From an uncultured Candidatus Saccharibacteria bacterium (GTDB lineage: Bacteria > Patescibacteriota > Doudnabacteria > UBA920), in contig CAZACP010000001.1 of NCBI GenBank assembly GCA_964483665.1, positions 6,358-70,357 of the forward strand: 64,000 nucleotides of DNA. The letters run 5' to 3'. The translations under genes and the position numbers were made by a program. Each line of letters opens with the position of its first letter. The stretch's first letter is position 1. This document shows positions 2,779 to 62,692 of the stretch, piece after piece. The notes under the pieces are model-generated. The model was not told where the DNA came from. It searched no databases and saw only the letters and a program-made list of their open reading frames with translations.

Positions 2779-4362
2779 GTGAAAATATTTCCATCATCAG
2801 CCGAATATAGGCCTGTAATTGGATTTGAAATCCATATACAGCTGGCAACTAAGTCTAAAATGTTTGGCCGCGCGGCCAATAATCCCGACCAGAAAGAACC
2901 AAATACAGACATAGACGAGGTTAATACCGGCCAGCCGGGAACTTTGCCGGTGGCCAACAAGGAAGCTATACGCCTTGCGGCCATGGTGGGTCTTGCTTTA
3001 AATTGCCAAATTGATGAATGGAGCAAGTTTGACCGAAAGCACTATTTTTATCCTGACTTGCCCAAAGGCTACCAAATTTCGCAGTATGATAAGCCTATTA
3101 GCAGAGATGGGTATCTTGATCTGGTGATAACCCCCTCATCCGTCCCGACTAAAGTCGGGACACCTTCTCCCTCAAGGGGAGAAGGTGATAATGTTATCCG
3201 CAAGCGGATACATATAACACGTGCTCATTTGGAAGAAGATGCGGGGAAAAATATTCACCCGGAGGGCTTGCCTTATTCATTAGTCGATTATAATAGAGCC
3301 GGCGCTCCGCTTTTAGAAATTGTTACAGAGCCAGAGCTGGAGAGCGGGGAAGACGCAAAAGCTTTTTTAACCGAGCTTAGAAACATTGTCCGGTACCTTG
3401 GCGCCAGCAGCTGCGATATGGAAAAAGGCACAATGCGGGTTGAACCGAACATTAGCGTTAGAAAACCCGGCGAAACCGGTTTGCCAAATTATAAAGTTGA
3501 AGTAAAAAATATTAACAGCATAAAATTTGCCCAGGCTGCCATAGACTACGAAATTGCCCGGCAGATAGAAATTTTAAAAGAAGGCGGCACACCCAAGCAG
3601 GTAACTATGGGTTGGGACGAAAAAAATAGCCGCACGGTTGAGCAGCGTTCTAAAGAAGAAGCCAATGACTATAGGTATTTTCCGGATCCGGATTTGCCGG
3701 TTTTGCAGTTTACTAAAGAGTATTTGGAAGACTTAAAAAATAGAATGCCCGAATTGCCCGCGCAAAAAAGAGCTAGGTTTTTAGAAGAGTTTGGTTTGCC
3801 ACAAGCCGATGTAGAGAATTTAATAAATTGGAAAGAACTTGCCAGCTATTTTGAAGATGTGGTTAGTGAAATAGATGAATGGTGGTCTCAGTTTTATCCT
3901 ATGAATTTATCAACAAAAGAAGTTCATAAACAGAACCGTGAGACTTATATAAAAAGAGCTGCTAATTGGTGTCTGCAAGATTTTAGCGCGCTATTGAATG
4001 AAAAAGGTATTAATCCGATGGATAGCAAGATAACTCCGGAAAATTTTGCAGAATTAATTTTTATGTTCCAGGGAAATAAGATATCTATTACTGCTGCCAA
4101 ACAAGTATTTAAAGTAATGTTTGAAAAAGGCGGTGAGCCGGATAATATTGTTGCGGATTTAGGTTTAGAGCAAACTTCAGACGAAGGCGCTATTTCGGCA
4201 GCAATAGACAAGGTCATCACCGCAAATTCAAAAGCAGTGGCAGACTATAAAGCTGGGCAGGAAAAGAGCTTTGGCTTTTTAGTCGGACAGGCTATGAAAG
4301 AACTTAAAGGCAAAGGGAACCCGGGGGTTATAAACGACATTCTAAAAAAGAAATTGATATAG
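2779..4362 (+). CDS. gatB: Asp/Glu-tRNA amidotransferase subunit B, carrying an in-frame repeat-element insertion
   Basis: GTG start; VIGFEIHIQL...RAHLEEDAGK...DYRYFPDPDLP are GatB hallmarks; about 19 extra residues (TPSSVPTKVGTPSPSRGEG) relative to the usual loop. Confidence 0.95.
   Translation: MKIFPSSAEYRPVIGFEIHIQLATKSKMFGRAANNPDQKEPNTDIDEVNTGQPGTLPVANKEAIRLAAMVGLALNCQIDEWSKFDRKHYFYPDLPKGYQISQYDKPISRDGYLDLVITPSSVPTKVGTPSPSRGEGDNVIRKRIHITRAHLEEDAGKNIHPEGLPYSLVDYNRAGAPLLEIVTEPELESGEDAKAFLTELRNIVRYLGASSCDMEKGTMRVEPNISVRKPGETGLPNYKVEVKNINSIKFAQAAIDYEIARQIEILKEGGTPKQVTMGWDEKNSRTVEQRSKEEANDYRYFPDPDLPVLQFTKEYLEDLKNRMPELPAQKRARFLEEFGLPQADVENLINWKELASYFEDVVSEIDEWWSQFYPMNLSTKEVHKQNRETYIKRAANWCLQDFSALLNEKGINPMDSKITPENFAELIFMFQGNKISITAAKQVFKVMFEKGGEPDNIVADLGLEQTSDEGAISAAIDKVITANSKAVADYKAGQEKSFGFLVGQAMKELKGKGNPGVINDILKKKLI
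3130..3186 (+). repeat. MITE-like hairpin element inside the gatB coding sequence, in frame
   Basis: ccccctcatccg + gtcccgac-taaa-gtcgggac + caccttctccc-tcaa-ggggagaagg; same architecture as the copies at 33136 and 33537. Confidence 0.8.
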
Positions 4363-4500
4363 TGTCGTCCCGGAATTTTTAAGGGCTGTTAAAATATCCG
4401 GGATCTAGATATTAGAAATTAAACAATAAAATTTAAAGGCTCACTCGAGTGAGCCTTTAAAAATGGCAAAATAAAACCCCTAGTTTAGGGTGGGGTAAAA

Positions 4501-5461: not shown

Positions 5462-6472
5462 TCATTTTCCTAAAAATTTTTCAACCGGCTTTGCGGTTTT
5501 TGAAAAGTCGGGCGGAAGCCAAATTATTTGTTTACTCTTTCTCCACCACGTAAGTTGGCGTTTTGAATAATGTTTTATGGCGAAAAGCAATTGCGTGAAC
5601 ATTTCATCGTAAGTTAGCTTTTTTTGCAGATACAAAGAAATAAATCGGTATTCAAGGCCAAAACTATTTAAACGTTTCCAAGATAAACCTCTCCCACCTC
5701 TCGCATTCGCTCGAGGCACCCTCTCCATGCTTTGGAGAGGGTGATTGTGTAGGTCTGCGACTTCTTTTATTATTCCTTGCTTAAAGCGCTCTTTAAGGCG
5801 TTTTTCTATTTTTTTATATAAATCTTTTTGATTGGTTTTTATGCCGAGCCATAAAGTAGGGTAGAGGGTAGAGGGCTGGGGCTTGAGTGGGGAAATGGGT
5901 TTTTTTGTTGCCTCGATGATTTCTAACGCGCGGATTAAGCGTCGTTTGTTGAATCTATCAGTGGTACTTGCCCGAGCTGGATCAAGTTTTGCAAGCTGTT
6001 TGTAAAGTTCTTCAGCAGATTTTTTTTCTAAAGCTGCGCGGAGTTTTTTGTTGGGTTTAACATCCGGGAGTTTTTGGTTATAAACGACCGCGTCTATCCA
6101 ATGAGCGGTTCCGCCACATAGAATAGGCAGTTTGCCTCTTTTTAAAACAGCAGAAATTGCTTTTTGCGCGTCCTTCTTAAAAAGCGCGGCAGAGAATTGT
6201 TTTTTTGGGTTTACGTAGTCTATGCAGTGGTGAAAAACGCCTTTGTATCTGTAAAACGCACGGCCGTGTGTTTTTACGGAAATCCATTTGCCCGGGATCT
6301 TGCCCGTGCCTAAATTAAGTCCTTTATAAATTTGCCGGCTGTCTGCGGAAATTATTTCACCGTTAAAACGCTTTGCTAGTTTTACTGCCAGTTCACTTTT
6401 GCCCGAAGAGGTAGGGCCAACAAGTACTAAAATTTTAGATTTTAGATTTAAGATTTTAGATTTTGAAAACAT
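5462..6472 (-). CDS. miaA: tRNA dimethylallyltransferase
   Basis: P-loop GPTSSGKSELAVKLA...IISADSRQIYKGL; the N-terminal SKSKILNLKSKIL is encoded by the tttagattttag word repeat. Confidence 0.9.
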   Translation of the reverse strand: MFSKSKILNLKSKILVLVGPTSSGKSELAVKLAKRFNGEIISADSRQIYKGLNLGTGKIPGKWISVKTHGRAFYRYKGVFHHCIDYVNPKKQFSAALFKKDAQKAISAVLKRGKLPILCGGTAHWIDAVVYNQKLPDVKPNKKLRAALEKKSAEELYKQLAKLDPARASTTDRFNKRRLIRALEIIEATKKPISPLKPQPSTLYPTLWLGIKTNQKDLYKKIEKRLKERFKQGIIKEVADLHNHPLQSMERVPRANARGGRGLSWKRLNSFGLEYRFISLYLQKKLTYDEMFTQLLFAIKHYSKRQLTWWRKSKQIIWLPPDFSKTAKPVEKFLGK

Positions 6473-22959: not shown

Positions 22960-22977
22960 AATTATCAGGCGGTAATA

Positions 22978-23011
22978 AAACAACCTCTGTGTACACAGAG
23001 GTTGTTTTTTG
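22978..23011 (+). terminator. Rho-independent terminator after rplA
   Basis: aacaacctctgtgtacacagaggttgtt followed by tttttt. Confidence 0.85.
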
Positions 23012-33135: not shown

Positions 33136-33587
33136 AGCCTTCTCCCGGCGGGGAGAAGGTGCCCGAAGGGCGGATGAGGGTGTTATATGCGCAACATAAA
33201 CAAAAGCTTTGTTAATCTTTCTAGGAATTTAAGAAAAAACGAAACACCTTGGGAAATAAAGTTATGGCAAAGGTTAAGGGGAAGGAAATTTTTAGGATTT
33301 AAATTTAAAAAACAATTGGTTATAGGTAATTATATTTACGACTTTGGCTGCTTTGAAAAGAGACTATTAATTGAACTAGATGGCGGACAATATAGTGAAA
33401 ATGATATTAAAGATAAAGATCAAATTAAGGAAGATTTTGCAAAAAACCAGGGCTATAAAATTATCAGGTTTTGGAATAATGAACTAGACAACAATTTTGA
33501 AGGAGTTTTGGAGACAATTAGAAAAAACTTATTATAACCCTCATCCGGCCGTTGGCCACCTTCTCCCCTAAAGGGAGAAGGCAAACT
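33136..33587. mobile_element. Composite miniature element: DUF559 ORF bracketed by inverted copies of the ccctcatccg/ccttctccc hairpin MITE
   Basis: Left copy 33136..33183 (reverse orientation), right copy 33537..33587; the arms are conserved and the small hairpins differ but remain stems. Confidence 0.7.
33187..33537 (+). CDS. DUF559 (Vsr-like endonuclease-fold) domain protein
   Basis: WEIKLWQRLRGRKFLGFKFKKQ...IELDGGQY matches the DUF559 pattern. Confidence 0.7.
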   Translation: MRNINKSFVNLSRNLRKNETPWEIKLWQRLRGRKFLGFKFKKQLVIGNYIYDFGCFEKRLLIELDGGQYSENDIKDKDQIKEDFAKNQGYKIIRFWNNELDNNFEGVLETIRKNLL

Positions 33588-33608
33588 AACATCCGTTTTG
33601 CTAAAATT

Positions 33609-35129
33609 ATGGAATCTTTTCCTCCAATTCATGAAATAGACCACCCGGCAATGCCAAAGTCCAGGCTTAATAGCTTGTTGATTATTTTAATGGTGACTTT
33701 ATTTTTAAGCGGCGGAGCTTTAATAGTTCTAAAGCAAATAGACACTTACCACAGAAAGCAGCTATATATAGCCACTAATGCCGCTTTGCCGGTGCATAAA
33801 GCCAAATTAACAAAATCCAATGTAGAAGTAAAAACTTTTGTGAGTCCTGAGTTTGGTTTTGTTCAGGAGTATACAGAGTTTTATGAGTCATACGAAATAA
33901 GCCCAATCGAAGCTTTTCCGGTTTTAAACTATGAAAAAGGACCAAAAGGCTACAAAAAAGGCTACAGGTTTGCTTCCTCGTTAAGCAGCGTGTTTTGTCC
34001 GGTTTTAGAAGTTTTGGTCTACTCAACCGAAGAAAAAACCGCGGCAAATTGGTTAAAGGTTAATACCGATATAAAAGGAGCTTTTGCAAGTCAGTCCGCA
34101 GAAAATATAAATCAGATTGAGTTTATAAAGCTTACGGGTCCTGGGGGCGATATGGTTCCAAGTGAGGTGTATTTGGCTTTGGCAAATAAGAATTTATACC
34201 AGTTAAATTTAAACTTTGGCCTTAAAGGCGACGCAGTAGACCCTAAATGCGGCAATATACTTTCGGGCTTTAAATTAACCGGTTTAACATCAGCAGAATG
34301 GAAAACATATAAGAATGAGGAATATGGGTTTGAGATGAAAATTCCATCCGAGTGGATAGTTGAAGAAACTCCTTACACGGTAATGTTTAGTACCCCAGAA
34401 AATAAAAAGCTTGCAGAAGAAAACAAAAAGAATTGCGAGACCGGAAAAAATGAATGCAACCCGGAATTTAATTCCCCGCACATGTTTTTTTCAAACAAAG
34501 ATTATTCCAAAACCGATATTATTCAACAGGAATTTAATATTAATGTTAATGGAACAGTTTGGTACAAGTACGCAATACCTAGTTTAGGTGACCCTTGGTA
34601 TTACAAAATTGAACACAATAACAAAATATACAATTTCATAATAAAAAAAGAACAATTCGAGCCTATTTTCTTTCAAATCCTCTCAACCTTAAGATTTACT
34701 GAAAAAGCTGACACCTCAACCTGGAAAACTTATAGGAATGAGGAATATGGATTTGAGTTTAAGTATCCTTTAGATTTTACAATTTTTGAAGGCGATAGCT
34801 ATCAACTACAGGGAGCAAAAAATGAATTAGTAGACGTTTTTTCAGTGCAGATCATAAACAATTCTAACAAAGAAGTGAAGTTAACGTATCTAATTAATAC
34901 TCCAGGTTCAGGATGTGGAGAAGGTGCTGAAAGAATTTCATCAATAAGTATGGAGGCTAGTAGTTTAGGAATAACAAAAGATGTATATTTATGGGGCATT
35001 TCTGGTAGTAAATGTTTTGATTACTCAGGATTTGGAAAAGGTTACATAATTGCTTCAATCCCAAAAAATTATGGTAATTTTGAATCTGTTTTTGACAAAA
35101 TAGTTTTGTCTATTAAATTTACTAAATAA
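33609..35129 (+). CDS. Membrane-anchored extracytoplasmic protein with a duplicated WKTY(K/R)NEEYGFE(M/F)K motif
   Basis: TM LLIILMVTLFLSGGALIVL; two repeat copies about 140 aa apart; the listed ORF start overlaps the MITE, so I trimmed it to MESFPP. Confidence 0.55.
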   Translation: MESFPPIHEIDHPAMPKSRLNSLLIILMVTLFLSGGALIVLKQIDTYHRKQLYIATNAALPVHKAKLTKSNVEVKTFVSPEFGFVQEYTEFYESYEISPIEAFPVLNYEKGPKGYKKGYRFASSLSSVFCPVLEVLVYSTEEKTAANWLKVNTDIKGAFASQSAENINQIEFIKLTGPGGDMVPSEVYLALANKNLYQLNLNFGLKGDAVDPKCGNILSGFKLTGLTSAEWKTYKNEEYGFEMKIPSEWIVEETPYTVMFSTPENKKLAEENKKNCETGKNECNPEFNSPHMFFSNKDYSKTDIIQQEFNINVNGTVWYKYAIPSLGDPWYYKIEHNNKIYNFIIKKEQFEPIFFQILSTLRFTEKADTSTWKTYRNEEYGFEFKYPLDFTIFEGDSYQLQGAKNELVDVFSVQIINNSNKEVKLTYLINTPGSGCGEGAERISSISMEASSLGITKDVYLWGISGSKCFDYSGFGKGYIIASIPKNYGNFESVFDKIVLSIKFTK

Positions 35130-62462: not shown

Positions 62463-62692
62463 TTAAAATCCCCTCTTTTTTTAAAAGAGGGGCTGGGGTG
62501 AGGTTGTAAGTTAATTTATAACCTCGCCCCGGAAAACTTTTAGTCCGGATTTAAAAACAAAACGCCCTTTATGTCTAGAGCATAAGCGGGGCGTTTTAAT
62601 TTGTTTAAATTTTCGACAGGACAATTCGCGCCGTGCCCCGTACCCTTCTTCGTGGTACTGGGGCGAATTGTCCAGTCAAATTAAATGCCGAG
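62463..62692. other. GC-rich nested-hairpin region between convergent genes (terminators and/or a small structured RNA)
   Basis: Four stems including ggacaattcgc...gcgaattgtcc and cccctct...agagggg. Confidence 0.35.

Follow-up and report, generated by a model that had tools for sequence, protein, structure and literature searches.

Among the short structured repeats of bacterial genomes, the family named successively BoxC, PIT (potential intrastrand triplex) and TM or TM-ECO (Bergler, 1992; Hoyne, Maher et al., 2000; Holder et al., 2015, PMC4666352) is defined by the published pattern CCCTCNCCC-N3-6-GGGNGAGGG-N3-GGGNGAGGG, in which the second G-rich block forms a purine-motif intrastrand triplex with the preceding hairpin. 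The triplex of the Escherichia coli motif, which has a 3-nt loop 2, is very stable in vitro by circular dichroism and nuclear magnetic resonance; the motif was counted 3610 times in 262 proteobacterial genomes, the E. coli copies were described as “always intergenic” with no mobility genes seen nearby in the 2015 survey, and the motifs mark unstable genome regions and have been tied to replication stalling and repair (PMC4666352). A second precedent is provided by the Rickettsia palindromic elements (RPEs; Ogata et al., 2000, 2002, as summarized in PMC10969869), selfish palindromes inserted in frame in unrelated housekeeping genes, where they add peptide stretches compatible with protein fold and function. 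Here we describe a repeat that combines aspects of both, found in 64,000 nt (hereafter the window) of the genome of an uncultured Candidatus Saccharibacteria bacterium placed in the Doudnabacteria (assembly GCA_964483665.1, contig CAZACP010000001.1, positions 6,358 to 70,357), where it lies in frame inside gatB, the gene for Asp/Glu-tRNA amidotransferase subunit B. We consider it likely that this is a selfish, structure-forming repeat of the BoxC/PIT/TM kind that sits in a surface loop of GatB and is translated as a tolerated loop, with a protein of the DUF559 family as its putative partner.

The gatB gene (2779-4362, plus strand) encodes 527 aa with Pfam matches to GatB_N (E 8.5e-108) and GatB_Yqey (E 1.3e-44), and its nearest matches are the GatB proteins of Candidatus Doudnabacteria (99-70% identity) and other Patescibacteria. 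The triplex-motif repeat within it spans 55 nt at 3133-3187 on the plus strand, the sense strand of the gene being the C-rich strand of the element. It is composed of box A (CCCTCATCC, 3133-3141), an inner hairpin hp1 (GTCCCGAC-TAAA-GTCGGGAC, 3142-3161), box B (CCTTCTCCC, 3163-3171), the loop TCAAG (3172-3176) and box C (GGGAGAAGG, 3177-3185), followed by TG at 3186-3187, all on the plus strand. Written out, the plus strand is CCCTCATCC-G-TCCCGAC-TAAA-GTCGGGA-CA-CCTTCTCCC-TCAAG-GGGAGAAGG-TG, and on the G-rich strand the same element is read as CCTTCTCCC-loop-GGGAGAAGG-TG-hairpin-C-GGATGAGGG. In the frame of GatB it reads ...VITPSSVPTKVGTPSPSRGEGDNV... and encodes P119 to about G136, the peptide segments spanning the insert being ...VITPSSVPTK... 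and ...SPSRGEGDNVIR....

The initial annotation of this DNA had proposed that a three-part structured segment lies in frame inside the gatB open reading frame (ORF), that the same architecture recurs twice near 33.1-33.6 kb, and that the inner hairpin changes in sequence while keeping its pairing; all of this stands. The further copies are located at 33138-33180 and 33538-33581, the pattern CCTTCTCCC-N3-6-GGGAGAAGG occurring three times in the 64-kb window against 0.00 expected from 100 shuffles, and CCCTCATCCG is found in the window only where those three hairpin patterns stand. The inner hairpin differs in sequence in all three copies and is base-paired in each. Two-hairpin folds of the C-rich strand range from -22 to -34 kcal/mol (z -4.1 to -5.9), with -33.6 kcal/mol for the gatB copy, and the element is GC-rich as compared with a genome of about 39% GC. 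An assembly artefact is excluded, since two independent assemblies carry the same insert (P0001, 99% identity; P0002, locus L001, 90% identity). In the DNA comparison the insert of L001 is the same as that of the window, and a close ortholog at 85% identity (P0003, locus L002) is without it. Many copies exist elsewhere, and the earlier view of the segment as a repeated, structured element inserted in frame is supported.

Judged from its sequence, the gatB element belongs, in an extended sense, to the BoxC/PIT/TM intrastrand-triplex-motif repeats. The Watson-Crick hairpin of the class (about 9 bp, loop of 3-6 nt) is recognizable in each of the three copies, CCTTCTCCC pairing with GGGAGAAGG across 4-5 nt. 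In the gatB copy the third block GGATGAGGG, set antiparallel to GGGAGAAGG, yields 9/9 allowed purine-motif triads (G.GC, A.AT, T.AT). The segment CCCTCATCC, initially annotated as an “arm,” is the complement of this third-strand block, and boxes A and B are mirror images of each other. Position 7 of box A covaries with the b3-c7 pair (TTA in 94 copies, CCG in 47, other combinations in 4; thus 141/145), in a count for which the search pattern permitted every combination at those positions, and variant families obey the same mirror rule between box A and box B. A detector built on the triplex architecture returned 269 matches for the antiparallel fit vs. 124 for a parallel decoy. Two features depart from the published class: loop 2 is 12-23 nt long and hairpin-forming in the window copies, as opposed to 3 nt in TM-ECO and 1-6 nt in the published ITxF search, which would therefore miss the hairpin variant, and the copies at 3133-3187 and 5688-5742 lie within gatB and miaA, respectively, rather than between genes.

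Several other assignments were considered and dropped. A pyrimidine-motif (C+.GC) triplex on the C-rich strand needs protonated cytosines and leaves an “A where T is expected” unexplained; both problems disappear on the G-rich strand, and we therefore prefer the purine-motif reading. An alternative hairpin between box A and box C was rejected, as box A position 3 remains C when c7 is A. The Bradyrhizobium repeats Br-REP1 and Br-REP2 differ from the element in sequence. Neither in the window nor at six proteobacterial loci does the element match any Rfam family, whether gathering scores or an E value of up to 10 are applied, and a literature search with strings of the element sequence retrieved nothing relevant.

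The position of the insert within GatB was assessed in an alignment of the query with 120 orthologs (69-99% identity), in which the segment from GYLDI-x-V to KRIGIT was measured. This segment comprises 4-5 residues in 49/121 sequences, 8-9 in 9/121 and 14-52 in 63/121. Between the two strands lie 4 residues in insert-free orthologs and 24 in the window protein; the net increase of 20 residues, or 60 nt, agrees with the insert size first annotated. The accompanying view that tolerance of such an insert in GatB is unusual has to be abandoned for this lineage: 63/121 GatB proteins carry 10-48 extra residues in the same turn, from at least six repeat families, several of them unrelated. Beside the window type (PSS..PSPxRGEG) and two relatives (PHPADAGHPLPEGEG and LSASSDSASPPEGE), these include a long palindrome (PVIARSAADEAI..IASDALAMT), FAKASSDKF, TPPLQGG../..GGGG and GKMxSSP, and in a neighbour-joining tree of GatB the insert families are scattered and mixed among insert-free sequences. 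At the DNA level, the gatB genes of L003 and L127 contain a different palindrome (GTCATTGCGAG...CTCGCGATGAC) at the turn, and those of L124, L125 and L126 contain triplex-type elements with other inner hairpins. The triplex-type inserts start 24, 33, 32 and 28 nt past the glycine codon of GYLD and are read in three frames; they therefore represent independent insertions into the same turn, neither one event nor one precise target. All seven gatB inserts in the turn that were examined at the DNA level are in frame, and the catalytic motif HLEEDAGK, 3' of the insert, is in the same frame. In an AlphaFold2 model the insert forms the tip of a beta-hairpin (strands 108-117 and 140-153), with a pLDDT confidence value <50 for residues 121-137, and Thermotoga GatB (3AL0_B) aligns with a gap of 19 residues precisely at the insert. 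From these alignments, the GatB turn is a permissive site that has been filled independently many times in the Doudnabacteria, by triplex motifs and by at least four other families.

Two further observations concern GatB itself. A second variable site lies at about residues 372-386 of the query (window 3892-3936), between the catalytic and helical parts, where orthologs show the repeat-like sequences SFDSAALAQDG, SGTPRRAG, GADIIRPQEGKMVSSP and SSRSAGLARDD, and the window protein has the 10-residue non-repeat sequence PMNLSTKEVH. Just 3' of the insert, at 3196-3215, GTTATCCGCAAGCGGATA (VIRKRI) forms a small palindrome, ATCCGC-AA-GCGGAT, which is common to the window and L124 (10406-10425 there), insert-free orthologs having NGKxKRIGIT; the palindrome may belong to an inserted unit of greater length.

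An architecture scan revealed a second in-frame copy, not reported in the initial annotation, at 5688-5742 (ACCTCTCCC-hairpin-CA-CCCTCTCCA-TGCTT-TGGAGAGGG-TG, plus strand). It is antisense to miaA (5462-6472, minus strand), the gene for the tRNA dimethylallyltransferase of the IPPT family, identified through a PDB MiaA match (E 7e-44) and through orthologous genes that match Pfam IPPT, and is read as ...HPLQSMERVPRANARGGRG.... At this site no insert is present in MiaA of L003 and L126, different inserts occupy it in L124, L125, L127 and L132, and the alignment with the MiaA structure 2QGN shows gaps. With a strict detector (perfect 7-bp stem and 7/7 triads), 9/11 matches in the Doudnabacteria loci compared fall inside gatB or miaA, and the other two flank a DUF559 gene. 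No in-frame element beyond that in miaA emerged when GC-rich islands and inverted repeats were sought across the window, in a search that did not include a screen of every ORF against its orthologs for other insert families. MiaA has two further variable insert sites, exemplified by SHPERSEGSHHPERACLSGRQVHPSEGSLK in L125.

The same architecture is widespread. A degenerate pattern recovered it from at least 120 loci of species-representative genomes; among the matches listed are Rhizobium, Bradyrhizobium, Caulobacter, Xanthomonas, Dyella, Geobacter, Planctomycetes, Acidobacteria and others, Alpha- and Gammaproteobacteria included, frequently as close inverted pairs. In 145 copies drawn from these loci boxes A, B and C are almost invariant, and the inner hairpin takes 103 different sequences. 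When the linker between box A and box B (the hairpin plus one flanking base, 8-24 nt) was analyzed, a perfect stem of at least 4 bp was present in 62% of the 103 distinct linkers vs. 7% of shuffles. The hairpin-loop triplex motif also occurs in at least 120 viral or proviral contigs of IMG/VR; among the loci listed (L148-L267), six have DUF559 genes, mostly not adjoining copies of the exact pattern.

Copies 2 and 3 in the window were found in association with a DUF559 gene, a feature that the initial annotation did not include. Copy 2 (33138-33180; plus strand CCTTCTCCC-GGCG-GGGAGAAGG-TG-CCCGAAGGG-C-GGATGAGGG, the C-rich strand being the minus strand) starts 5 nt past the stop codon of rplI and ends 6 nt before the ATG of the DUF559 gene (33187-33537, plus strand), and copy 3 (33538-33581, plus strand; CCCTCATCC-G-GCCGTTGGC-CA-CCTTCTCCC-CTAAA-GGGAGAAGG) has its first base directly after the TAA of the same gene, so that the gene is bracketed by two copies in inverted orientation. 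Its product of 116 aa has a Vsr-like PD-(D/E)xK endonuclease fold (PF04480, E 1e-33), the closest solved structure being PDB 3HRL (E 8e-19). A degenerate relative, likewise absent from the initial annotation, occurs at 62468-62505 on the minus strand (CAACCTCACCCC-AG-CCCCTCTTTT-AAA-AAAAGAGGGG); it is intergenic, between convergent genes, has no inner hairpin and forms 7/8 triads, and could also be a terminator-like hairpin. The triplex-architecture detector thus finds exactly five elements in the window, two inside genes (gatB and miaA) and three intergenic. The ORF at 33552-35129 has a mechanical TTG start (MATFSPKGRRQTN...) inside copy 3, and its first residues are therefore translated repeat; the true start is probably further downstream, e.g., at the ATG of MESFPP.

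A DUF559 gene adjoins a copy in five among the 120 pattern-selected loci listed. To avoid selection by the motif, an unbiased set was assembled by protein similarity alone, comprising four metagenome loci, 15 plasmid or mislabelled-chromosome loci (tblastn) and the window, thus 20 in total, with sources such as E. coli (ycjD), Azospirillum, Sinorhizobium, four Deinococcus, two Synechocystis plasmids, Shinella, Sphingomonas, Picosynechococcus and Neisseria. The strict motif is present within 250 nt of DUF559 in 17/20 of these loci, on both sides in 9/20, and the remaining three show imperfect motifs by eye; as background, 102 of 1000 tiles contain the strict motif, a value inflated by the origin of the tiles in motif-rich, pattern-selected loci. 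Both flanks of a DUF559 locus usually have matching motif variants, and 3332/5426 complete genomes contain E. coli ycjD together with the two motifs downstream of it (at least 80% coverage). Several records above 2 Mb in the plasmid collection (PLSDB), from E. coli (L133, NZ_CP141089.1, 4.9 Mb), N. gonorrhoeae, Sinorhizobium and Shinella, are clearly whole chromosomes labelled as plasmids. We tentatively suggest that DUF559 proteins (E. coli YcjD and relatives) might be dedicated nucleases of BoxC/PIT motifs, recognizing the triplex or hairpin and mobilizing or copying the motifs. If so, this would explain both why the motif is nearly identical in different phyla and how it reached coding loops in the reduced genomes of the candidate phyla radiation (CPR), and would amount to a partnership like that of the repetitive extragenic palindromic (REP) sequences with the REP-associated tyrosine transposases (RAYTs), with another enzyme and another DNA structure as its basis.

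Taken together, these observations suggest the following scenario. The selfish repeat is read on the G-rich strand as C-rich arm, loop, G-rich arm, loop 2 with its hypervariable hairpin, and third G-rich block. One copy has landed in the four-residue beta-hairpin turn of GatB with the frame preserved, and would be translated as a disordered loop of about 20 residues, rich in Pro, Ser and Gly, that the enzyme tolerates. We infer translation because the insert is in frame and stop-free, HLEEDAGK follows in the same frame, and 7/7 gatB inserts are in frame. The recurrence at the turn would reflect frequent insertion followed by selection for loop-tolerant sites rather than a precise target, which fits the several sites per protein, the varying offsets and the varying frames. 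With less certainty, DUF559 would recognize the motifs and mobilize or maintain them, by analogy with the relation of RAYT transposases to REP sequences.

A number of points weigh against this scenario and should be considered when interpreting it. Translation of the insert is a prediction, and in a GC-rich element a stop-free frame is weak evidence for it. Triplex formation is known only for the E. coli motif with its 3-nt loop 2, and not in vivo (PMC4666352). With regard to transposition, no consistent target-site duplication and no defined ends were found. There are far more motifs than DUF559 genes, motifs may be present in many genomes that have no DUF559, and to our knowledge DUF559 is not a known transposase. 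The window DUF559 has Tyr (ELDGGQY) in the place of a His that is invariant in 20 other DUF559 proteins from many phyla (ELDGxxH), and may on this sequence be catalytically inactive. The motifs at DUF559 mostly have the third block proximal to the gene, with the reverse orientation in Deinococcus, and the set of DUF559 loci is not fully independent, as it includes the close pairs L130/L131, L134/L147 and L136/L138.

Other explanations can be set against these data. The occurrence of at least six families in one four-residue turn could be taken to mean that the turn is targeted site-specifically, by the elements or by a homing nuclease, or that a resident palindrome attracts the next element, the families replacing each other; composite inserts of 40-48 residues that resemble two elements side by side (P0035, P0044, P0109) are in line with this, and the unusual right flank VIRKRIHIT shared by the window and L124, with wholly different inner hairpins, suggests overwriting by conversion. 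We nonetheless think targeting unlikely, given that the triplex-type inserts occur at four offsets and in three frames, that the second variable site of GatB and the three sites of MiaA are what is expected if any permissive loop is struck, and that the junctions examined revealed neither a common target sequence nor a duplication. A somewhat unlikely scenario, which should be given more weight, is that DUF559 is a free-standing homing-type nuclease gene that lands in inverted motif pairs, the motifs themselves being spread by errors of replication or repair such as template switching at stable non-B structures. ORF-less inverted motif pairs, 50-180 nt apart, are common among the genome matches listed, the orientation of the motifs around the ORF varies, and the link of the motifs to instability, replication stalling and repair without nearby mobility genes (Holder et al., PMC4666352) fits it; against it, the identity of the boxes across phyla would be hard to keep without a protein that reads the sequence, and a DUF559 gene whose stop codon abuts one motif and whose start is 6 nt from the other resembles a single unit.

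The proposal that the insert is translated and tolerated has two competitors of its own. The insert could be absent from the mature protein, through ribosome skipping as in T4 gene 60 and the mitochondrial “byp” inserts or through removal from the RNA, as might be imagined for a GC-rich double hairpin of this stability in a genome of such composition, the more so as an 8-nt direct repeat, GGTGATAA, stands on either side (starting at 3123 and 3184, 61 nt apart). This repeat is in part the conserved stem, and there is none at copies 2 and 3 or in L124-L126. A translational hop between its two copies was rejected, the 61-nt spacing shifting the frame and leading to a stop codon soon after; with an insert that is stop-free and exactly in frame, like all of those examined in gatB, we consider skipping or removal very improbable. 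Hardly credible in our opinion is a lineage-specific functional loop of GatB that resembles intergenic repeats by chance or convergence. The loop is identical in the window and L001, and such loops are frequent in the clade, but intergenic copies here and in distant phyla have exactly the same blocks, CCCTCATCCG and CACCTTCTCCC...GGGAGAAGG, in the same order, close orthologs have no loop or an unrelated sequence at the site, and the AlphaFold2 model gives the loop no structure.

The surroundings of gatB are variable as well. Between the upstream gatA (857-2347) and gatB lies a gene at 2387-2752 for a 23S_rRNA_IVP protein (PF05635, four-helix bundle), flanked on both sides (2347-2386 and 2753-2778) by AT-rich repeats of the AAATTTTAAATTT type. 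The corresponding spacer holds a GIY-YIG gene in L127, unrelated small ORFs in L001, L002, L124, L125 and L132, and nothing in L003 and L126; L124 and L125 also have PDDEXK_3 and GIY-YIG genes scattered between conserved genes. Two perfect palindromes without loops were observed in the window, one of 15+15 nt at 4432-4461 (TTTAAAGGCTCACTC/GAGTGAGCCTTTAAA), about 70 nt past the gatB stop codon, and one of 16+16 nt at 22977-23008 (AAAACAACCTCTGTGT/ACACAGAGGTTGTTTT).

The BoxC/PIT/TM class has been known since the 1990s, and in-frame selfish palindromes are known from Rickettsia; new with respect to the motif literature are the copies in frame within coding genes and the bracketing of a DUF559 gene, the latter apparently undescribed. 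We know of no function, mobility mechanism or associated protein found for BoxC/PIT/TM motifs. Our literature search, which covered few subscription journals and leaves novelty unproven, found no paper tying DUF559 to these repeats. The findings suggest that triplex motifs can live inside essential genes as loops that would be translated, providing a CPR counterpart to the “selfish DNA in genes” of Rickettsia, and the repeated recolonization of GatB and MiaA loops in the Doudnabacteria offers a natural map of insertion-tolerant sites. As DUF559, a small, widespread and uncharacterized nuclease family that includes E. coli ycjD, is usually found near the motifs, their spread could be tested in E. 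coli.

The comparison with known systems places the element most closely with one of them. The initial annotation had classed it as a miniature inverted-repeat transposable element (MITE), and it shares with MITEs a small size, multiple structured copies and an at times intragenic location; this classification could not be retained, because the asymmetric unit, which has box A on one side and hairpin 2 on the opposite one, shows neither terminal inverted repeats nor a consistent target-site duplication. No parent insertion sequence or transposase relative was found either, DUF559 being the only protein gene found bracketed by copies in a window not screened as a whole for transposases. The T4 gene 60 and mitochondrial “byp” inserts are likewise GC-rich hairpins in coding sequences of AT-rich genomes, but those are out of frame and hopped over, whereas the gatB insert is in frame and stop-free. 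REP sequences, with the composite forms BIME and REPIN, and their RAYTs (TnpA-REP; the “REPtron”) offer the parallel of short structured repeats, single or in inverted pairs, that bracket an enzyme gene as inverted copies and far outnumber it; the RAYT is, however, an HUH Y1 transposase and the REP a GTAG-type head with a simple hairpin, while the gene bracketed here is DUF559 (PF04480) and not Y1_Tnp, with a Vsr-like PD-(D/E)xK fold and a triplex motif. The RPEs are alike in behavior only, as in-frame palindromic insertions in housekeeping genes (here gatB and miaA) that are absent from orthologs: they are about 100-150 bp long, confined to Rickettsia and of other sequences, so that size (about 55 nt here) and host argue against membership, and neither a triplex motif nor a nuclease partner is described for them, while in the CPR lineage several families strike one loop repeatedly. 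With BoxC/PIT/TM, in contrast, the element shares the three blocks on the G-rich strand (C-rich arm, 3-6 nt loop, G-rich arm and a second G-rich block that fits purine-motif triads), nearly equal block sequences (CCCTCNCCC/GGGNGAGGG as published vs. CCYTCTCCC/GGGAGARGG/GGRTGAGGG here), and a multicopy occurrence with frequent inverted pairs, widespread in bacteria. It differs in its hypervariable hairpin of 12-23 nt in place of the 3-nt loop 2, and in its settings: the E. coli motifs are reported to lie always between genes, with no mobility genes close by, while here two copies reside in genes and two bracket a DUF559 gene.

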